From: an uncultured Verrucomicrobiota bacterium
GTDB lineage: Bacteria > Verrucomicrobiota > Verrucomicrobiia > Limisphaerales > MWDV01
Reading direction: 5' to 3'
Assembly (NCBI GenBank): GCA_964548925.1
Contig: CAZJTM010000003.1
Span: 16,155-80,154 of the forward strand
Length of the DNA stretch: 64,000 nucleotides
This document shows, in pieces, positions 42,989-54,126 of this stretch (positions within the stretch are counted from its first letter, which is position 1; every line of letters begins with the position of its first letter). The notes beneath the pieces were generated by a model. It was given only the letters and a program-made list of their open reading frames with translations, was not told the DNA's origin and searched no databases. Both the position numbers and the translations under genes were made by a program.

Positions 42989-43308
42989 ATCGGCACGCTG
43001 CTGAGTTGATCGCAGCCGGCCGGCCGGGGTTGCAGCAGAACTCCGCCTCAGCAAATCGTCCACGTTCCATCGGCTCGACCACGAGCAGTTGCTCCACATG
43101 ATTGATAGCCGCGCCACGCAGCGCCATTGAGCCAGGTTGGCCGGAGGCGGATTGGATTGTAACAATTGGCGGCTTGCGCGGACCGTAACGCGCCCATTAT
43201 ACACCTCCGGAGCGCGTGCGTCGCGGTTGGCCGCGGCGTGGGGGCGCTTGCGCCCTGCCGTCCGGTTGGAAAGCGGAGCAAACTGCCGGGCGGACGGGCG
43301 ATGAACTT

Positions 43309-44451
43309 GTGACCCAAGCCAGACACAATCACTTGAATCCGCCAACACATTTTGAGGCCTCCCTCCAGCGGGCGATGGATGCCATCCGCGCGAAGGTCAC
43401 GCAAATGGCCGGGTTGGATGAGCGCGCCTTGAAGGCCAGCTTGCAGGCGTTCGTGGAGCGCAATCGGCAGTTGGCCTACTCGGTCATTCTGCGCGACCAG
43501 TATCTGGACGAGTTGGAAACGGAACTGGACCGGCTTTGCCTGGAATTCCTCGTGCGGCAGCAACCCGCCGCCGGCCCGCTGCGATTCGTTTTCACCACCA
43601 TCAAGATTAACAAGGAACTGGAGCGGATCGGGGATTACGCCGAGAGCGTCGCCCGCCAGGCGCTGAAGCTCAGTCCACTGGCGACGCCCCTGCCGCAGGA
43701 GAAGTTCGTCGAACTGGGCAACCTCGCCGTCCACATGCTGCGCGACGCGGTCCAGGCGTTTCTGGATCAGGACGCGGAGCTGGCGCGCCGGACGATGCTG
43801 ATCGAGGAGCGCGGGAATACCTTGCGCAACCAACTGAACGCGGAACTCTCCGCCCTGCACGATGCCGGGAAGCTGCCGACGGAGGCGTTGACCCCGCTGC
43901 TGACCATCGCCCGGCGTTTCGAGCGCGTCACGGATCAGACGAAGAACATCTGCGAGGAAGTGCTTTACCTTTGCACGGGCGAGTTCACCCATCATCCCGG
44001 CGCGGAGGCGTTCCGGATTTTGTTCGTGGATGCCGACAACTGCTGGCTCAGTCAGATGGCGGAGGGCATTGGCAATTCGCTGGGCGTGCCCGGGTTTGTT
44101 TTCAGCAGCGCGGGCATTGCGCCCCGGCCGGTGGACGCGCGGGTGGTGGAGTTCATGTCCCGGAAGGGCATTGATCTCTCGCGCCACACGAGCAAGACCC
44201 GTGAGCAAGTGCCGAACTGGGATCACTACCAAGTCGTGATCGCGCTGTGCGAGGAAGCGCAAAAAGTTTTCCCCGCAGCGCCCACGAAGACGATTTGCCT
44301 CACGTGGTCCCCGCCCGTCCCGGCCAGTACCGAGGGCAGTCTGGAGACGGTGCAAGCTGCTTTCACTTCCGCGTTCAACTTTCTTCAGGATCAAATCCAG
44401 GTTTTGGTGGAGGCGATCCGCGGAGAACCTCAACAACAAACGACCTCATGA
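43309..44451 (+). CDS. PhoU-domain protein fused to a degenerate LMW phosphatase/ArsC-like domain (GTG 43309 suggested; track start 43216)
   Basis: Two PhoU repeats (KELERIGDYAESVARQ and RRFERVTDQTKNICEEV). The C-terminal domain aligns by eye to LMW-PTP, but the P-loop reads V-D-A-D-N-C-W-L-S (44026-44052) instead of V-C-x-G-N-x-C-R-S. Confidence 0.75.
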   Translation: MTQARHNHLNPPTHFEASLQRAMDAIRAKVTQMAGLDERALKASLQAFVERNRQLAYSVILRDQYLDELETELDRLCLEFLVRQQPAAGPLRFVFTTIKINKELERIGDYAESVARQALKLSPLATPLPQEKFVELGNLAVHMLRDAVQAFLDQDAELARRTMLIEERGNTLRNQLNAELSALHDAGKLPTEALTPLLTIARRFERVTDQTKNICEEVLYLCTGEFTHHPGAEAFRILFVDADNCWLSQMAEGIGNSLGVPGFVFSSAGIAPRPVDARVVEFMSRKGIDLSRHTSKTREQVPNWDHYQVVIALCEEAQKVFPAAPTKTICLTWSPPVPASTEGSLETVQAAFTSAFNFLQDQIQVLVEAIRGEPQQQTTS

Positions 44452-45377
44452 AACCGAACACGATTATTTCAAATTTCATCCGCCCTGGCGTGGGCGTCAC
44501 CGGTGCGGTCGCCCTGGCTTTGGGACTGGCGGGTTGCGGTCCGAAAGGCGACGGCGGCTCAGGCGGCGGCACCGCGGCGAAACCGGCAGAAATCCGCGTC
44601 AAAGGCTCGGACACGATGATCCAGCTCGCGACCGCGTGGGCCGAAGCCTACCGGAAGGTGCGGCCGAACGTGTATGTCAACGCCAACGGCGGCGGCAGCG
44701 GCACCGGCATCGCCGCCCTCCAGAACAACAACACGGACCTCTGCAACGCCTCGCGCGAGATCAAGCCCGAGGAACGGGAGAAGGTCAAAGCCGCCACCGG
44801 CAAGGAAGTGAAGGAATTCGTCGTGGCCTACGACGCCTTGGCCGTTTATTCCCATCCTTCGAATCCCATCAAGGAGATTACGATCGAAGACCTCCGCGAA
44901 ATTTGGGCCGAGGGCGGCACGATCACGCAGTGGGAGCAAGTCAGTCCGGCGTTCAAGGGCAAGATCGTGCTCTTTGGCCGGCAGAATAATTCCGGCACGT
45001 ACGACTATTTCCGCGAGCACGTCTGCGGCAAGACTGCGGACAAGAAACAGCGGGAGTTTCGCGGCGGCATCAGCGAGATGAACGGTTCGGCCGAAGTGGT
45101 CGAAAACATCGCGCGCACGCCCACAGCCCTGGGCTACAGCGGCATGGGTTACAAGACGCCGCATGTCAACTGGCTGAAGGTGGCGCACAAGAAAGGCGAG
45201 CCGAGCGTTGAGCCCGGCGTCGAAGCGGCGCGCTCCGGCAAGTATCCCATCTCGCGCAAGCTTTACATCTACTGCGCCGGCGAGCCGGAGGGCGAAGTGA
45301 AGGCCTTCATTGACTGGGTGCTTTCGCCGGAAGGACAAAAGATCGTCGAGAAGGAAGGCTTCGTGCCGGTGCATTGA
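44448..45377 (+). CDS. pstS: Phosphate ABC transporter substrate-binding lipoprotein PstS (ATG 44448)
   Basis: Lipobox LAGC. Motifs KGSDTMIQLA and GGGSGTGIAAL. The ATG overlaps the stop of the PhoU fusion (ATGA). Confidence 0.9.
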   Translation: MKPNTIISNFIRPGVGVTGAVALALGLAGCGPKGDGGSGGGTAAKPAEIRVKGSDTMIQLATAWAEAYRKVRPNVYVNANGGGSGTGIAALQNNNTDLCNASREIKPEEREKVKAATGKEVKEFVVAYDALAVYSHPSNPIKEITIEDLREIWAEGGTITQWEQVSPAFKGKIVLFGRQNNSGTYDYFREHVCGKTADKKQREFRGGISEMNGSAEVVENIARTPTALGYSGMGYKTPHVNWLKVAHKKGEPSVEPGVEAARSGKYPISRKLYIYCAGEPEGEVKAFIDWVLSPEGQKIVEKEGFVPVH

Positions 45378-45453: not shown

Positions 45454-46452
45454 ATGATGCCCAAACCCAATTCCTCCAAACCACGTCGCAGGTTCAACCT
45501 CCTCGACGCCCTTGAAGTCCCCACCGAATGGCTGATTCGGTTCTGTGGCTGGAGCGGCATCATTGCGGTTGCGGCCATCTTCCTGTTCATCTTCAAGGAA
45601 GCGGCGCCGATGGTGCCCAAGCTGGACTGGGTGCATTTCTTCACCAGCTCGCGCTGGATTCCAGAGCCCGGCGGCGATAATCCGGCCAGCTTTGGCGCGC
45701 TGGCGCTGATCACCGGAACGGTCGCCACCACGTTCCTCGCGCTCCTCTTCGCCGTGCCGATTGGACTCGGCGCCGCGGTTTACATCTCCGAGTTCGCCCA
45801 GGGCAAGGTGAAGGAGACGTTGAAGGTGCTGATCGAAATGCTCGCGGCGATCCCGTCCATCGTGTGGGGATTCATTGGCTTGATGGTGCTGGGGCCGATC
45901 ATCACAACAATCTTCAGCGCCGAGCCGGGAAGCTGGTGGGGGCACACCATGGTCGCGCTGCGCATCGCCAGTTCGGAAACCGGCGCGGCGCAGGGCACCA
46001 ACCTCCTCACTGGCAGCATCGTGCTCGCGCTGATGAGCGTGCCGCTGATCGTGTCGCTCTCGGAAGACGCGCTGCGGGCCGTGCCGGATTCGTTTCGCGA
46101 GGCGGCGCTGGCACTTGGGGCGAACCCTTGGGAAACCGTGCGGCGTGTGCTGTTTCCGGCCGCGCGGAACGGCTTGCTCGCCGCCTGCATGCTGGGCATG
46201 GGACGCGCCATCGGCGAAACCATGGCCGTGCTGCTGGCTGCCGGCCACAGCAACCGCATCCCCGCCTTCCTCACCGATCCGGTGCGAACCATGACCGCCA
46301 CCATCGCCGCGGAAATGGGGGAAACGGTGCATGGCAGCGATCACTACCGGGTGTTGTTCATTCTCGGCATCGTGCTGTTCGCCGTCACTTGCGCCATCAA
46401 CGTCGCCGCCGACTTCATCATCAAGGGCGTCAAGAACCAGGAGCATTCGTGA
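45454..46452 (+). CDS. pstC: Phosphate ABC transporter permease PstC
   Basis: Polytopic permease with the EAA-type loop (SEDALRAVPDSFREAALALGANPWETVRRV). Confidence 0.9.
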   Translation: MMPKPNSSKPRRRFNLLDALEVPTEWLIRFCGWSGIIAVAAIFLFIFKEAAPMVPKLDWVHFFTSSRWIPEPGGDNPASFGALALITGTVATTFLALLFAVPIGLGAAVYISEFAQGKVKETLKVLIEMLAAIPSIVWGFIGLMVLGPIITTIFSAEPGSWWGHTMVALRIASSETGAAQGTNLLTGSIVLALMSVPLIVSLSEDALRAVPDSFREAALALGANPWETVRRVLFPAARNGLLAACMLGMGRAIGETMAVLLAAGHSNRIPAFLTDPVRTMTATIAAEMGETVHGSDHYRVLFILGIVLFAVTCAINVAADFIIKGVKNQEHS

Positions 46453-47426
46453 CCGCCGCCCCTCCAGCCCCGTTTGCTGAAAACCCCTTTGCGCCGGGAG
46501 AATTTGAGCGTCGCAAGGCGCGCCGGGCCAACCGGAACAAATGGTTGCTTTTCGTTTGCTGCCTCCTGCTGGTGCTGCCGATCCTCGCCATCCTGATCTA
46601 CATCTTCATTCGCGCCGCGCCGATTCTCTCGCCCGAATACATCTGGTTGAATCCCGCCGACAAGGGCAAGACCGGGGGACTGTGGGCGCCGCTGGTCGGC
46701 ACCTTCTATCTGGTTGTCGGATCGCTGGTGGTCGTGGCGCCGGTCGGCATTCTCGCCGCCATCTACTTGAACGAATACGCCCGCGAAGGCTGGTTCAAAC
46801 GGATGGTCAGCATCACGGTGACCACGCTGGCCGGCGTGCCCAGTATCGTGCATGCGTTGTTTGGGCTCGGCGCGTTCGTGCTCGGAATGCTGCCGGCGCT
46901 CAATCGCGTGCTGGCGGATCCGAACGACCTGACCACGCGGTGGCAGGCGGGGCTTTTGACCGCCTCCCTGACCATCGCCGTGATGACGTTGCCGGTGATC
47001 ATCACCGCCGCGCGCGAGGCCCTGAACGCCGTGCCGCACGCCTTCCGCGAGGCGTGCTGGAACCTCGGCGCCAGCCGCTGGCAGACCATCCGCACCATCG
47101 TGCTCCCCAATTCCTTCGGCGGCATCCTTACGGGCGTGATTTTGGAAGTGTGTCGCGCGGCGGGCGAGACGGCCCCGATCTTGTTTACCGGCGCCACGTT
47201 CTTCAAGTTCGTCGCCGATCAAGGGCTGGCGAAGTTCTTTCCGTATCACATCGGTGAGCCGTTCATGGCCATGTCCATGCACCTGCACGTGATCTCCAGC
47301 CAGATTTCGCAGATGCCCGAAGTCATGAAATTCGGCGCGGCGGCGGTGCTCATCGGACTGATCCTGTTTGTCAACAGCTTCGCCATCGTCCTGCGCATCT
47401 GGCTGCGTAGCCGCAAACGCTGGTAG
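46449..47426 (+). CDS. pstA: Phosphate ABC transporter permease PstA (GTG 46449, GTGA overlap with pstC)
   Basis: The C-terminal two thirds of track ORF 45864..47426 is permease-like (AAREALNAVPHAFREACWNLGASRWQTIRTIVLP). The upstream part of that ORF is an out-of-frame shadow of pstC. Confidence 0.88.
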   Translation: MTAAPPAPFAENPFAPGEFERRKARRANRNKWLLFVCCLLLVLPILAILIYIFIRAAPILSPEYIWLNPADKGKTGGLWAPLVGTFYLVVGSLVVVAPVGILAAIYLNEYAREGWFKRMVSITVTTLAGVPSIVHALFGLGAFVLGMLPALNRVLADPNDLTTRWQAGLLTASLTIAVMTLPVIITAAREALNAVPHAFREACWNLGASRWQTIRTIVLPNSFGGILTGVILEVCRAAGETAPILFTGATFFKFVADQGLAKFFPYHIGEPFMAMSMHLHVISSQISQMPEVMKFGAAAVLIGLILFVNSFAIVLRIWLRSRKRW

Positions 47427-47436
47427 CCCGGCGGTT

Positions 47437-48201
47437 ATGACGGACACCCGCACGCACATCGAGTTCCGCAACGTCTCGGCCTTCTATGGCTCGAAACAGG
47501 TGCTCCGGGAGGTTGGCTTCAGCGTGCCGCGCAACACCATCTTCGGCATCATTGGTCCGGCCAACTCGGGCAAGACCACGCTGCTCAAGACGATCAACCG
47601 CACGCTGGAGTTCGTGGGCGGCGCGCGGTCGAGCGGGCAGGTATTGCTCAACGGCGCGGACGTGGCCGCCGTGCGCAATCCAACCGAACTGCGCCGGCGC
47701 ATCGGCATGGTCTTTCCGCTGCCGGTGGGACTGCCATTGACGGTTTATGAAAACGTGGCCTATGCGCCCCGCCGGATGGGCATCGCTGACAAAGCGCAGT
47801 TGGACGAAATCGTGGAGCGGTCACTGCGGCAGGCGGTCTTGTGGGACGAAGTGAAGGACCGCTTGGGCTCGCTCGGCACACGGCTCTCGGGCGGCCAGCA
47901 ACAACGCCTCACGCTGGCCCGCGCCCTGTCGCTCTCGCCGGAGGTGCTTTGCCTGGATGAATTCAGCATCGCGATTGATCCGGTCACCACCATGCGCATC
48001 GAGGAGGTGCTGAAGGAGTTGAAAACGACGCTCACGATCATCCTCGTCACCAATCTCCTCCAGCAGGCCCGGCGGATTGCCGACAACACATTGTTCCTGT
48101 GGCGCGGCGAGGTGATCGAACTCGGCCCGACGTCGGTTGTGTTCAGCGACACGCCAAAAGATAAACGCACCTACGACTACGTGAACGGGATTTTCGGATG
48201 A
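47437..48201 (+). CDS. pstB: Phosphate ABC transporter ATP-binding protein, paralog 1 (canonical LSGGQ; Q-loop Gln and H-loop His missing)
   Basis: Walker A GPANSGKTT. Signature LSGGQQQR (47884-47898). Walker B LCLDEF. The Q-loop position reads MVFPLP. The H-loop position reads VTNLLQQ (Asn codon at 48052-48054). Confidence 0.85.
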   Translation: MTDTRTHIEFRNVSAFYGSKQVLREVGFSVPRNTIFGIIGPANSGKTTLLKTINRTLEFVGGARSSGQVLLNGADVAAVRNPTELRRRIGMVFPLPVGLPLTVYENVAYAPRRMGIADKAQLDEIVERSLRQAVLWDEVKDRLGSLGTRLSGGQQQRLTLARALSLSPEVLCLDEFSIAIDPVTTMRIEEVLKELKTTLTIILVTNLLQQARRIADNTLFLWRGEVIELGPTSVVFSDTPKDKRTYDYVNGIFG

Positions 48202-48971
48202 GCGAGGAGCGTTACTGCATCACGACGCACGGGCTGAACTTGTGGTACGCCAAGTTCCAGGCGCTGCTCAACGTGTCGGTGAACATCAAGCACGGCATCA
48301 TCACTTCGCTCATCGGTCCGTCTGGCTGCGGCAAGACCACGCTCCTGCGCTGTTTCAACCGGGTGAACGAGCGCTACGGCTACGTCACCACCACGGGCGA
48401 GATCAAGATTCTCGGGAAGAACATTTACGATCCGGACGTCTCCCTCATCGAACTGCGCAAGTCGGTCGGGATGGTGTTCCAGCGCCCCAACCCGCTGCCC
48501 ATTTCCGTCTATGAGAACGTGGTCTTTGGCCTGCGCCTGCATCGCGAGTCGAAGGACACCAAACGCGCGATCCTCGACCAGGCCGTCGAGCAAGCCCTGA
48601 CCGAGGTCGGCCTCTGGAGCGAACTCAAGGACCGGTTGGACACCAAGGCCACCCGGCTGCAACTGGAGCAGCAGCAAAAACTCTGCATCGCCCGACTCCT
48701 GCCGCTCAAGCCGCAGATCATTCTCATGGACGAACCCTGTTCCGCGCTGGATGTCGAAGGCACGCGCGCCATCGAGGAACTGATGTTCAGTCTGAAGGGC
48801 CGTTACAGCATCGTCATCGTGACGCACAACATGGCTCAAGCCCGCCGCGCGAGCGACGAGTGCCTGTTCATGCTGCTGGGCGAGGTGGTCGAGCATGCCC
48901 GCACCGAGCAACTGTTCCTTGCCCCCAAGCATCCCAAGACCGCCGAGTACATCGAAGGCCGCTACGCGTAG
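48198..48971 (+). CDS. pstB: Phosphate ABC transporter ATP-binding protein, paralog 2 (canonical Walker A/B, Q- and H-loops; degenerate signature)
   Basis: Walker A GPSGCGKTT. Q-loop MVFQRPNP. Walker B ILMDEPCSALD. H-loop VTHNM. The signature position reads LQLEQQQK (48657-48671) instead of LSGGQ. Confidence 0.85.
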   Translation: MSEERYCITTHGLNLWYAKFQALLNVSVNIKHGIITSLIGPSGCGKTTLLRCFNRVNERYGYVTTTGEIKILGKNIYDPDVSLIELRKSVGMVFQRPNPLPISVYENVVFGLRLHRESKDTKRAILDQAVEQALTEVGLWSELKDRLDTKATRLQLEQQQKLCIARLLPLKPQIILMDEPCSALDVEGTRAIEELMFSLKGRYSIVIVTHNMAQARRASDECLFMLLGEVVEHARTEQLFLAPKHPKTAEYIEGRYA

Positions 48972-49093
48972 GCCGACGACAGGGCATCCTCCGGGGCGGG
49001 GTGCTTTTCTTGCCGCCAACGCCACTCGAATCCTGAGCGACTTGCGGCGTGGTTTGGAGTCGCCCAGGTCGTTCCCCGGTGCCACATTGGGGC

Positions 49094-51053: not shown

Positions 51054-53984
51054 TCACCGCAGGCGCGGCGTCAGGAACTCCAGCAGATCCGCCACGGCGT
51101 GGGGCGCGAGATTCGTCTCCAGCCCTTCGGGCATCGCGGAGAGGTTCAGGTTTTGGAGGTCGAGCACGGCGCTTTGGGGAATGGCGATTCGCCCGTTGAG
51201 CGGTTGTCGCAGGACCACGCCCGCCGTGGTTTCATTTTCGATCACGCCCAGCAGACTTCCAAGATGCCGAGTCTCGATGACGTGGCACAGCCATTCCGGG
51301 GACACATAACCGTTCGGGTCCACGAACTGCGTCAAGACCCACTCCGCGCCGCGACCGACCGCGCTTTCGAGGTCGGGACCGAATTCCGCGCCTTCGCCCC
51401 GGAAACGATGACATTCCGCGCAGCGCGTCAGGAAGAGCTGTCGCCCCCGCGCGGCATCTCCGCGCCGGGACAAGGCCGGGCGCAGGCGCTGGATGGCTTC
51501 CGCGCGATCCTCCGTGGGCGGACCGAACAGGTCCTTCGCGCGCCGCGAAACCGCCGTTGCGGGATGCAACCGCAAGAAGGCGACCTGTGGAGCGGACAAG
51601 GCATCGCGCGGGATCACTCCGTCTTGCACGGCGGTCAACAGGGCCTGGCATCCCTCGGTTCGCGCCAGCAAGGCATCGAGCGCGACCAGCCGCACCGGTT
51701 CCGGCATCTCGCTCCAGCGTTGCGTCAGACCCGGGCCCACGCGGGCGTCGCTGAACCGGGCCAGTGACTGGACCGCCGCCAACTGGACCATTTCCGTTTG
51801 CGCCGGGGCGATCAGCCCGAACAGCGTCTCGCTGACTTCCTCGAAAGGGGCCGCCGCGAGCAGGCGAATGCCCTCCACGCGCACCGACTCCTGGCCGCCC
51901 TTCGCCGCCACCAAGGCTTCCCGAAAGAGCGGGCGCAACTCGGTGTCGAGCACCACTCGGGACAGTTGGCTGCCGGCGCCGCGCAGGCCCTCGTCGAGCC
52001 GGTGGAGCAAGGCGAGCCGGAGCCGGGCTTCGGGCAGTCGTTCGAGGGTCACAAAGGTCCGGGAGACTTCCGCGCGGACATTCCGTGAGCCGAGCAGCAG
52101 CGTGAGTTCCCGCAGGAACGCCTCGCCGCCATCGGAGCGCCGCAGCACCGGATCACCCAGCACCAGCCGCAGAGTATCGCCCGGCTCCGTGGCCAGCGCA
52201 TTCAAGACAGCAGCGCGCACCCATGGTTGCTCCGGCTCGCGGCTCAACACTTCCACCAACGCCGCGTCCCGTTCGGGGCCGAGAATGTCGCGGCAAGCCA
52301 GCGTGAACTCGAAGCGAACCGCCGGGGAAGCATCGGAGGCCAACGATCGCAGCGCCGGCCAGAAAGCGTTCAGCGCGGCCTCGTCGCGGTGCCCGAGTTG
52401 ATCCGCCAAGCGGATGGCGAGCATGCAAACCCGGTCGTCGTCGTCCCGCAATCCCTGCTCGACGTGCCGCGCGTCCAGGGCGTCCAGCGCGTCCAAGGTC
52501 GCCAGCGCGTGCAGGCGGGCCAGCGGACTTCCGGCCCGAAAGAGCATGTTGCTCAGGAGCGGCGGAGTGGCCGGATGCCGCTGCTCACAGAGCAGGCGGG
52601 CGGCGGTATCGCGATGCCAGCGATTGGAGTGGGCCAGGTTCGCGGCGAGGTCCACCAGCTTGGCCTTCGCGAGTTGCGGGGCGGAGGGTTGTTTGAAGTT
52701 GTCCGGCACGATGCGGTAGAGGCGGCCACGGTCACTGCCGCGCCGCCGCGCCGCCGCCACCCGCTGCGATTCCGGCAGCCGGGGCCACGGATCCAGGAAC
52801 TCGCGATGGAGGTCCGCAATGTAGAGCGCGCCGTCCGGCCCGACGGTGAGATGCATCGGGCGAAACCAGGTGTTCGTCGTGGCCAGAAACTCCGCGCCCA
52901 ATTCGTCCGCCGGCCGGCTGGCGCTGAGGACGACACCATTAGTGCGCAGCTTGAAGCGGTGAATCACGTTCGCCCGCGCGTCGGCCACGAACACGTCTCC
53001 CCGGAACGCCGGCGGGAAGGCGTGGCCGTCATAGACGACCAAGCTGGACGCCGCGGAGAAATGCTCGGTGATGCGTTTTGTCGCGGTAGTCTGGCCGCCG
53101 GCGCCTCCCGGGACGGCGACTTCGCGCAACGCCAGGAGCGGCGTGGCGGACGCCGGCCCGGAGAGGTCCACGAGCGGCGGCGGCAGGACGAACGCGTTGG
53201 TGTGCGCCGCGTGGCGGGTCTCCCACATCACCTGCCGCAGCGGACGGGCGGGGGCACAGACGAGCCGGCGGCCGAGCGCGTCGAAGCCCACGCCCGTTGA
53301 GCCCCCGCTGCTTTCCGCGTCGAAGACCTGCGTGCGCGGGTCGAAGGCAAAGTCGTGTCCGTCCAACTGGAACTCGCTCCCCGTTCCGCGCGAGCGGCGG
53401 GCGGCGCCGCTGAAGGCGGCGTGAATCCGGTGGTCCAATCCCCAGACGAAGCCGCGGATGGGGAGCGGGTTTTCCGCGCCCCGGAAGTTCTGTGCGTCCC
53501 CGGCGAACAGGGTCTTACGCTCATCCGCACGCCCGTCATCGTCCGTGTCCTTGCAGTGGAGGATTTCCGTGCCCGCCGCCACAATGACGCCGTGGTCCCA
53601 GCAGAGGAGCGCGGACGGCGCGGGCAGGTCCTCCACGAAATCCTTGCTCGTGTCGAAGCGGCCATCACCGTCCTGGTCCTCCAACAACCGCACGCGCCCG
53701 CGATGTGGCGGGCCGGCGTCCGGCCCGGGGTAATCGCGATGTTCCGCGACGAAGAGCCGCCCCTCGGCGTCGAAGGCCATAGCGACGGGGTCAAACACCA
53801 GCGGTTCGGCGGCGACGAGTTCGAGGCGGAAGCCTTTCTTGAGTTGGAAGCCGGCAAGATCGTTGGTCGCCGGCTCGGCGACGCCGCGCGGCGCCGCAAG
53901 GAGAAGGCCGGCGAGCCCAAGGCGGATGGCGAAGTTTCGTTTCACGTCGCGGAGAGCATGACGCAGGGCTATTGCCGTGTCCAT
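51054..53984 (-). CDS. PVC-type putative membrane-bound dehydrogenase domain / HEAT-repeat / c-type heme-binding protein (ATG 53984 preferred)
   Basis: The N-terminal region looks like a beta-propeller. The central region has HEAT-like helical repeats. The C-terminal region has a CAECH heme c motif (LFLTRCAECHRFRGEG). The architecture is common in Planctomycetes/Verrucomicrobia by recollection. Confidence 0.65.
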   Translation of the reverse strand: MDTAIALRHALRDVKRNFAIRLGLAGLLLAAPRGVAEPATNDLAGFQLKKGFRLELVAAEPLVFDPVAMAFDAEGRLFVAEHRDYPGPDAGPPHRGRVRLLEDQDGDGRFDTSKDFVEDLPAPSALLCWDHGVIVAAGTEILHCKDTDDDGRADERKTLFAGDAQNFRGAENPLPIRGFVWGLDHRIHAAFSGAARRSRGTGSEFQLDGHDFAFDPRTQVFDAESSGGSTGVGFDALGRRLVCAPARPLRQVMWETRHAAHTNAFVLPPPLVDLSGPASATPLLALREVAVPGGAGGQTTATKRITEHFSAASSLVVYDGHAFPPAFRGDVFVADARANVIHRFKLRTNGVVLSASRPADELGAEFLATTNTWFRPMHLTVGPDGALYIADLHREFLDPWPRLPESQRVAAARRRGSDRGRLYRIVPDNFKQPSAPQLAKAKLVDLAANLAHSNRWHRDTAARLLCEQRHPATPPLLSNMLFRAGSPLARLHALATLDALDALDARHVEQGLRDDDDRVCMLAIRLADQLGHRDEAALNAFWPALRSLASDASPAVRFEFTLACRDILGPERDAALVEVLSREPEQPWVRAAVLNALATEPGDTLRLVLGDPVLRRSDGGEAFLRELTLLLGSRNVRAEVSRTFVTLERLPEARLRLALLHRLDEGLRGAGSQLSRVVLDTELRPLFREALVAAKGGQESVRVEGIRLLAAAPFEEVSETLFGLIAPAQTEMVQLAAVQSLARFSDARVGPGLTQRWSEMPEPVRLVALDALLARTEGCQALLTAVQDGVIPRDALSAPQVAFLRLHPATAVSRRAKDLFGPPTEDRAEAIQRLRPALSRRGDAARGRQLFLTRCAECHRFRGEGAEFGPDLESAVGRGAEWVLTQFVDPNGYVSPEWLCHVIETRHLGSLLGVIENETTAGVVLRQPLNGRIAIPQSAVLDLQNLNLSAMPEGLETNLAPHAVADLLEFLTPRLR

Positions 53985-54126
53985 TCCGACGGAATCCACG
54001 TTCACTCTTCCCAAGAACCGCATGCTCCCAAGGATTCAAAGCGTTCAAGGATGGCGGCAAGCGGATTCCTGAACGCTCTGGGTTTCTGGTGGAACTCGAA
54101 AGGGCGGCGCGGCGCGGGTCAGGGGC

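Follow-up and report, generated by a model that had tools for sequence, protein, structure and literature searches.

How is a phosphate importer powered when its operon encodes two different adenosine triphosphate (ATP)-binding subunits and each of them has lost part of the catalytic machinery? The question is raised by two tandem pstB paralogues, here called B1 and B2, at positions 47,437 to 48,971 of a 64,000-nucleotide stretch of contig CAZJTM010000003.1 (assembly GCA_964548925.1) from an uncultured Verrucomicrobiota bacterium; the whole of this stretch is referred to below as the window. A first-pass annotation of the window had proposed that the two paralogues are degenerate in complementary motifs, and that they would form an obligate asymmetric heterodimer with a single competent ATP site, which is not what is expected of the classical homodimeric PstB. 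Judged from the sequences, an obligate B1:B2 heterodimer with one catalytic and one degenerate ATP site is the best explanation of this locus, and we consider it likely. The two genes and the motifs on which the argument turns are as follows.

47437..48201, + strand: B1, a PstB paralogue of 254 amino acids (cis elements degenerate, signature intact); best NCBIfam model TIGR00972
47554-47577, + strand: B1 Walker A, GPANSGKT
47704-47724, + strand: B1 Q-loop, GMVFPLP (Pro94 codon 47716-47718)
47884-47898, + strand: B1 signature, LSGGQ
47944-47979, + strand: B1 Walker B and D-loop, VLCLDEF-SIAID
48046-48060, + strand: B1 H-loop, VTNLL (Asn206 codon 48052-48054)
48198..48971, + strand: B2, a PstB paralogue of 257 amino acids (cis elements canonical, signature degenerate); best NCBIfam model TIGR00972
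48315-48338, + strand: B2 Walker A, GPSGCGKT
48468-48488, + strand: B2 Q-loop, GMVFQRP
48657-48671, + strand: B2 signature, LQLEQ
48717-48737, + strand: B2 Walker B, IILMDEP
48741-48752, + strand: B2 D-loop, SALD
48819-48833, + strand: B2 H-loop, VTHNM

Both proteins are full-length relatives of PstB, as had been claimed, with Escherichia coli PstB as the top PDB match for each (B1, E=1.5e-60; B2, E=1.3e-71). Motifs were placed by aligning each protein with HMMER to the E. coli PstB of known structure (PDB 9k3x_C); both alignments ran end to end and were free of gaps at the motifs. This revealed that Pro94 of B1 takes the place of the Q-loop Gln98 of E. coli PstB (GMVFQKP to GMVFPLP) and Asn206 that of the H-loop His210 (VTHNM to VTNLL), with the LSGGQ signature retained. 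In B2, the Walker A, Q-loop, Walker B, D-loop and H-loop are all canonical and the signature alone deviates, Gln155-Leu156-Glu157 standing where E. coli PstB has Ser155-Gly156-Gly157. The alignment upheld the positions at which the first-pass annotation had placed the Q-loop, H-loop and signature, and the coordinates it had given for both signatures and for the Asn codon of B1, together with its reading of the B1 Q-loop, agree exactly with those listed above.

Inspection of the remaining elements of B1 revealed deviations beyond those previously noted. Its Walker A reads GPANSGKT in place of GPSGCGKS, so that the central Gly of GxxGxGK is gone and the Lys-Thr is present; Phe has taken the place of the Pro at position Walker B+2, directly following the catalytic Glu (LDEP to LDEF); and the D-loop SALD has become IAID. 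B1 still has the aromatic residue of the A-loop (Tyr), Lys-Thr in Walker A and Asp-Glu in Walker B. A complete canonical motif set is found in neither polypeptide, the Q-loop Gln and H-loop His being gone from B1 and the Ser-Gly-Gly from B2. B1 and B2 are thus members of the PstB family by descent and context that lack its full motif set and score, at 283.9 and 315.5 bits respectively, below the curated cut-off of 343.2 bits for the PstB equivalog model TIGR00972.

The ATP sites of ATP-binding cassette (ABC) proteins are composite, with both Walker motifs, A and B, plus the A-, Q- and H-loops contributed by one subunit and the signature by the other (PMC7756269). As the deviations of B1 lie in its Q- and H-loops and those of B2 in its signature, all of them map to one composite site and the other site is consensus, which bears out the earlier proposal of one consensus site, made up of the cis elements of B2 and the signature of B1, alongside one doubly degenerate site. 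Given this architecture, a B1:B1 or B2:B2 dimer would have two defective sites and a consensus site would arise only in B1:B2. Both sites of a B1 homodimer are predicted to be without the Q-loop Gln and the H-loop His, and both sites of a B2 homodimer are predicted to carry Gln-Leu-Glu in place of the Ser-Gly-Gly of the signature, which contacts the gamma-phosphate (PMC7756269).

The motif states of both proteins are strongly conserved. Among the best 120 database homologues of each protein, which are 79-95% identical to B1 and 82-99% identical to B2, the B1 homologues have Pro in the Q-loop in 119 of 120 sequences, and all 120 carry VTN or VSN in the H-loop and LSGGQ as the signature. LQLEQ is present in 118 of the 120 B2 homologues and Leu-Glu at signature positions 3-4 in every one of them, as are the canonical Walker A, the Q-loop Gln and the H-loop His (120/120 each). 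A scan with B2 at one genome per species yielded 80 loci at 75-86% identity. A B1-type gene lies directly upstream of B2 at 78 of these; of the other two, L074 is cut by a contig end and L075 is without B1, giving 78 of 79 assessable loci, and at least 78 genomes besides that of the window share the design. The B1-type genes at the 78 loci show the motifs V[AFS]PLP, VTNL, FSIA[IV]D and LSGGQ, and Glu175 of B1, the catalytic Glu of Walker B, is invariant among both the homologues and the loci. At many loci the open reading frames (ORFs) of B1 and B2 abut or overlap, as in the window, where the ATG of B2 overlaps the TGA of B1 as ATGA.

To this survey we added a column-wise comparison of 72 full-length pairs (the window and 71 genome loci) with 22 canonical PstB proteins, given here in E. 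coli numbering. Q98P and H210N in B1 and G156L and G157E in B2 are fixed in 72/72 pairs. The fixed non-canonical residues of B1 (S45A, G46Q, C47S, F97A, Q98P, L176C, P180F, S182I, L184I, H210N and N211L) all fall in its own cis elements or D-loop, while overall identity among the sampled B1 sequences is only ~70%. The fixed differences of B2 lie in the signature helix (S155Q, G156L, G157E and R161K) and elsewhere at E142D, V143L, A169P and P186V. The B1 signature and the B2 cis motifs are canonical in all 72 pairs, so that complementarity, which the first-pass annotation had suggested surveying across tandem pairs, holds without exception and is a pattern far beyond chance.

By their record titles, the hosts of these loci belong to the Verrucomicrobiota, Acidobacteriota (Thermoanaerobaculia, Holophagae), Myxococcota (Polyangiaceae, Sorangium, Haliangiales), Fibrobacterota, KSB1 and Desulfobacterota; titles naming Bifidobacteriaceae and Heliobacteriaceae are probably binning errors. 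Several of the contigs that bear B1/B2 loci are 0.3-10 Mb long. The spacing between B1 and B2 reaches 0.6-2.3 kb at a few loci, L028 (3740-6001; 2.3-kb insert), L015, L052 and L070. At L075 (2843-6771) a PhoU fusion gene, pstS and pstC are followed, after a gap of ~190 nucleotides, by B2 with LQLEQ, with no pstA or B1 nearby, an arrangement for which a genuine deletion, a relocation or a misassembly could account. At three loci a canonical pstB (LSGGQ, Q-loop Gln, H-loop His) adjoins the variant operon (L072, 2-643; L078, 3-641; L068, 7538-8278 on the minus strand), just upstream of it in L072 and L078. These neighbouring genes encode proteins 45-53% identical to B2, and their position suggests that the variant system coexists with a classical Pst rather than replacing it.

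In the heterodimer that we propose, the subunits would be arranged head to tail, and the consensus site would be built from the Walker A, Walker B, Q-loop and H-loop of B2 together with the LSGGQ of B1. This site would perform the hydrolysis that drives transport. The degenerate site would comprise the altered Walker A, Gln-less Q-loop and Asn-containing H-loop of B1 facing the LQLEQ of B2. This second site has kept the Lys-Thr of Walker A, the Tyr of the A-loop and the Asp-Glu of Walker B, and for that reason probably still binds nucleotide, with hydrolysis there probably slow or nil. By analogy with asymmetric ABC exporters its role may be structural or allosteric, and each turn of the pump would consume roughly one ATP. 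Invariance of the retained motif halves, conserved synteny, frequent translational coupling and the position of B1 and B2 as the sole ATPase genes of their operon all argue for this arrangement.

That operon occupies 43.2-49.0 kb of the window, where six co-directional, tightly packed genes lie on the + strand in the order PhoU fusion, pstS, pstC, pstA, B1, B2. Upstream of B1 and downstream of B2 the features are as follows.

43375..44451, + strand: gene 1 of the operon, PhoU fused to an ArsC/low-molecular-weight (LMW)-phosphatase-like domain, 358 amino acids; two Pfam PhoU domains and LMWPc
44448..45377, + strand: pstS, phosphate-binding lipoprotein (PstS family, TIGR02136 type); TIGR02136 score 242.5 against a cut-off of 206.6, Pfam PBP_like_2, lipobox LAGC
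45454..46452, + strand: pstC, permease; TIGR02138 score 294.8 against a cut-off of 196.45, Pfam BPD_transp_1
46449..47426, + strand: pstA, permease; TIGR00974 score 234.0 against a cut-off of 193.45, GTG start overlapping the pstC TGA
48989..49011, + strand: terminator-like hairpin with a T-rich tail, a possible end of the operon, from a consensus scan only

As the curated NCBIfam cut-offs are exceeded by PstS, PstC, PstA and PhoU alike, the last with 158.9 against 130.25 for TIGR02135, the operon encodes a genuine Pst phosphate importer. The fusion ORF at its longest spans 43216-44451, its likely start being the ATG at 43375, and its stop overlaps the ATG of pstS; the ArsC models score below their cut-offs on this protein, and the members of its cluster are 358-372 amino acids long, one of them named PhoU. 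The ATG of B1 lies 10 nucleotides past the pstA stop. The operon is without any ATPase gene other than B1 and B2, and no further pstB was found in the 64-kb window. Nine terminator-like sites were found in the region against 5.9 expected, which makes the hairpin after B2 weak evidence of an operon end. GenBank entries HEY9174783.1 and HEY9174784.1, which come from a metagenome-assembled genome of the Verrucomicrobiae, are identical to the B1/B2 pair, and both are annotated as 'phosphate ABC transporter ATP-binding protein'.

Among solved structures, B1 and B2 are both most closely related to E. coli PstB in the PstSCAB complex (PDB 9k3x/9k3s), which matches them in length and domain layout and shares their operon partners PstS, PstC, PstA and PhoU. 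In E. coli PstSCAB, a type I importer, two identical PstB subunits are docked, one on PstA and one on PstC (PMC12976172). This homodimer has two consensus sites, whereas in the window two genes are each without a different half of a site, and the contrast with the classical PstB that the first-pass annotation had drawn stands. Tandem pstB genes are also known from Firmicutes, where pstB1/pstB2 of Enterococcus faecalis and the genes for PstBA/PstBB of Bacillus subtilis form an adjacent pair at the end of the pst operon, as in the window. A complex of B. subtilis PstBA, PstBB, PstC, PstA and PstS has been modelled (PMC11466899), and PstB1 and PstB2 of E. faecalis are functionally non-equivalent, although overexpressed PstB2 alone can suffice (PMC12096839). 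The E. faecalis proteins have motifs identical to those of canonical PstB (PMC12096839) and are ~60% identical to each other, in contrast to the complementary deviations and 37% identity of B1 and B2. As both copies are canonical, the Firmicutes tandem PstB proteins are a different case from the pair in the window. According to the same 2025 study of E. faecalis, tandem pstB paralogues had not been addressed by any earlier work (PMC12096839).

Asymmetric ABC exporters offer a further comparison. TM287/288, TAP1/2, MRP1, CFTR and Pdr5 each have one consensus and one degenerate composite site, with cis deviations in one domain paired with a deviant signature in the other, as in B1/B2 (PMC3971661; PMC7756269). 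The degenerate-site signature of yeast Pdr5, LNVEQ, has the same Gly-to-Glu change at position 4 as the LQLEQ of B2 (PMC7756269). In these exporters ATP remains at the degenerate site and holds the two domains together (PMC7756269; PMC3971661). As in asymmetric ABC dimers generally, the B1/B2 pair consists of non-identical domains, its deviations fall at one composite site with the other consensus, and the asymmetry is kept in orthologues. Replacement of the Walker B catalytic Glu in the degenerate site, which is usual in the exporters and frequent, if not universal, among asymmetric dimers, is not seen in B1 (LDEF), and loss of the Q-loop Gln is a hallmark of the window pair that sets it apart from the exporters. 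The architecture differs as well, in that the ATPase domains of the exporters are fused to membrane domains, whereas B1 and B2 are subunits in their own right, belonging to a type I importer that depends on a binding protein. Among ABC importers, RbsA and NupO of B. subtilis have one non-competent ATP site by sequence analysis (PMC11466899), but their ATPase domains are fused, belong to another importer family, have lost the Walker A Lys and do not serve phosphate systems. A literature search for PstB heterodimers or PstB proteins with degenerate motifs, for type I importers with a degenerate site and for pstB copies in Verrucomicrobia, for which journal coverage was incomplete, returned nothing on this system. 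Going by its motifs, the pair would work like an asymmetric ABC dimer, a principle that is established. A natural and widespread phosphate importer of type I that has a single consensus site and an unusual PhoU fusion conserved along with it appears to be undescribed in the literature covered.

Several observations weigh against an obligate heterodimer with a single active site. The Walker B catalytic Glu retained in B1 is absent from many degenerate sites. Replacement of the consensus-site H-loop His of MRP1 by Asn or Gln gave wild-type-like transport (PMC7756269), and by this token the B1 site could have some activity; the Q-loop Pro of P0360 (L085), a PstB-like protein encoded by a single-copy gene, likewise implies that loss of the Gln alone need not inactivate. 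At L075, B2 follows pstC with neither pstA nor B1 nearby, which, if real, counts against an obligate pair. As an excess of PstB2 replaces PstB1 in E. faecalis (PMC12096839), tandem PstB genes alone are no proof of an obligate heterodimer. Some of these points would fit a B1:B2 heterodimer in which both sites are catalytic and two ATP are spent per cycle, through an alternative chemistry with Asn acting for His and the Glu of LQLEQ aiding catalysis or Mg binding. This alternative could draw on the Walker A Lys-Thr and Walker B Asp-Glu of B1, on the His-to-Asn tolerance of MRP1 and on the replacement residues themselves, since Pro, Asn and Leu-Glu are specific and invariant, which suggests a selected function. 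We nonetheless think it unlikely, as five motifs of one site deviate together and invariance is equally expected of a tuned site that binds nucleotide without hydrolysing it. Moreover, the deviant site of Pdr5, with its LNVEQ, is regarded as non-catalytic, and Pdr5 lost its activity when canonical motifs were put back at that site (PMC7756269).

The E. faecalis precedent, in which PstB2 is required and PstB1 is an accessory replaceable by excess PstB2 (PMC12096839), leads to another possibility, namely that a B2 homodimer with an unusual but functional LQLEQ powers the transporter and that B1, as a pseudo-ATPase, has an accessory or regulatory role, for instance in phosphate signalling together with the PhoU fusion. 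The occurrence of B2 without B1 at L075 and the conservation of a special PhoU fusion alongside the pair are consistent with such an arrangement, and E. coli PhoU is reported, in a reference within PMC12976172, to be in contact with PstB. However, such a dimer would have Gln-Leu-Glu instead of the gamma-phosphate-contacting Ser-Gly-Gly at both of its sites (PMC7756269), and PstC and PstA need one bound ATPase subunit each (PMC12976172). B1 is moreover present at 78 of 79 assessable loci, and the invariance of its LSGGQ (120/120 homologues; 72/72 pairs) is hard to explain without a role in completing a catalytic site, leaving this explanation quite improbable. Least credible is the idea that the pair is a decaying duplicate, with one or both genes drifting to pseudogenes while a canonical PstB encoded elsewhere powers the transporter. 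Scores below the curated PstB cut-off and the additional canonical pstB near the loci L068, L072 and L078 speak for this idea, but the ORFs are intact and full-length, and invariant substitutions with conserved synteny are incompatible with neutral decay. At other loci B1 is 58-81% and B2 75-86% identical to its counterpart in the window, a range of 58-86% held across phyla, whereas PstS, PstC and PstA at the same loci are in most cases only ~45-55% identical. Constraint is thus stronger on the two ATPases than on the other parts of the transporter, pseudogene drift is excluded, and the decay reading is effectively refuted by the conservation data.

The B1:B2 pair is not a recent duplicate. 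B1 and B2 are each ~43-46% identical to canonical PstB, and in neighbour-joining bootstrap analysis, with Firmicutes sequences kept outside the tree, the B1 clade and the B2 clade are each recovered at 100%. Together with the 37% identity between the two proteins, these separate clades point to an old and stable pair. An exhaustive representative search with B1 revealed a second PstB-like set, B1', in which the Q-loop is VFATP (Gln to Ala), the H-loop VTNN (His to Asn), the signature LSGGQ and the D-loop canonical; the corresponding B2' proteins have LTSEQ, LSAEQ or LTEEQ as their signature. B1' and B2' are encoded in tandem in Sorangium sp. So ce260 (L082, CP150320.1; 7001-7801 and 7811-8566; B2' with LTSEQ) and in a Gemmatimonadaceae genome (L083, 7001-8559; B2' with LSAEQ), and L081 also belongs to this second lineage of complementary PstB pairs, whose existence lends further support to the heterodimer. 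The Q-loop Ala and H-loop Asn are fixed across 119 homologues of B1', and both lineages share the change of Gly to Glu at position 4 of the signature. B2 and B2' were grouped with moderate bootstrap support (60%), and B1 and B1' at only 15%. In the operons of the second lineage an ordinary PhoU gene lies downstream, and the Sorangium operon has pstC fused to pstA.

Three long matches that might have been natural B1-B2 fusions (P0243, P0246 and P0374) proved to be frameshifted, low-quality gene calls, and P0378, P0360 and P0275 were ruled out as further complementary pairs because they are single genes and not tandem. Each of the latter encodes an unusual PstB-like protein. P0378 (L084, 402-1463) has Walker A Lys replaced by Met and the signature LTADA, and adjoins a PhoU gene; P0360 (L085, 1638-2486) combines its Q-loop Pro with the signature LSPGQ; and P0275 (L086, 800-1813) combines the signature LSIGQ with a TusA-like extension at its C-terminus.

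The first gene of the operon is conserved with the pair. A PhoU-ArsC-like fusion lies upstream of pstS at 64 related loci (within the range L002-L078), with one clear exception, L079, and is therefore part of a conserved module. Nearly all homologues carry an Asp where the P-loop (CX5R) of the ArsC/LMW-phosphatase-like domain would have its nucleophilic Cys, the consensus being VLFVDEHNSCRSQMAEA compared with MFVCKRNSSRSQMAEG in Synechocystis ArsC, and the fusion in the window, with ILFVDADNCWLSQMAEG, has lost the Arg as well as the Cys. Going by these residues, the domain probably acts neither as a reductase nor as a phosphatase, and we speculate that it could be a phosphate-binding sensor. 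A literature search for PhoU-ArsC fusions, again with incomplete journal coverage, turned up nothing on them. It is conceivable, although we hold this view only tentatively, that the six genes form an unrecognised, multi-phylum Pst subtype with a single catalytic site, in which the degenerate site would be permanently occupied by nucleotide and would couple the state of the transporter to the PhoU-fusion sensor. If so, this would be a natural type I importer that spends one ATP per cycle and has signalling built in.

It has long been asked whether ABC importers use one ATP per cycle or two, and the question has been approached mostly with engineered single-site mutants of homodimeric importers such as HisP and MalK (PMC3971661). 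If the asymmetric heterodimer proposed here is correct, a classical type I importer whose PstB pair is asymmetric by nature and strongly conserved would provide a natural test system for single-site operation and would allow the role of a degenerate site to be studied outside the exporters. The annotation that both proteins carry in the databases hides the predicted inability of B1 or B2 to work as a homodimer, as well as what would be a distinct Pst subtype in many soil and freshwater Verrucomicrobiota, Acidobacteriota and Myxococcota, sometimes beside a canonical one. Elsewhere in the window, and unrelated to the pst operon, the ORF listing includes an ORF of 989 amino acids on the minus strand (51054-54023) with a CAECH haem-binding motif near its C-terminus.

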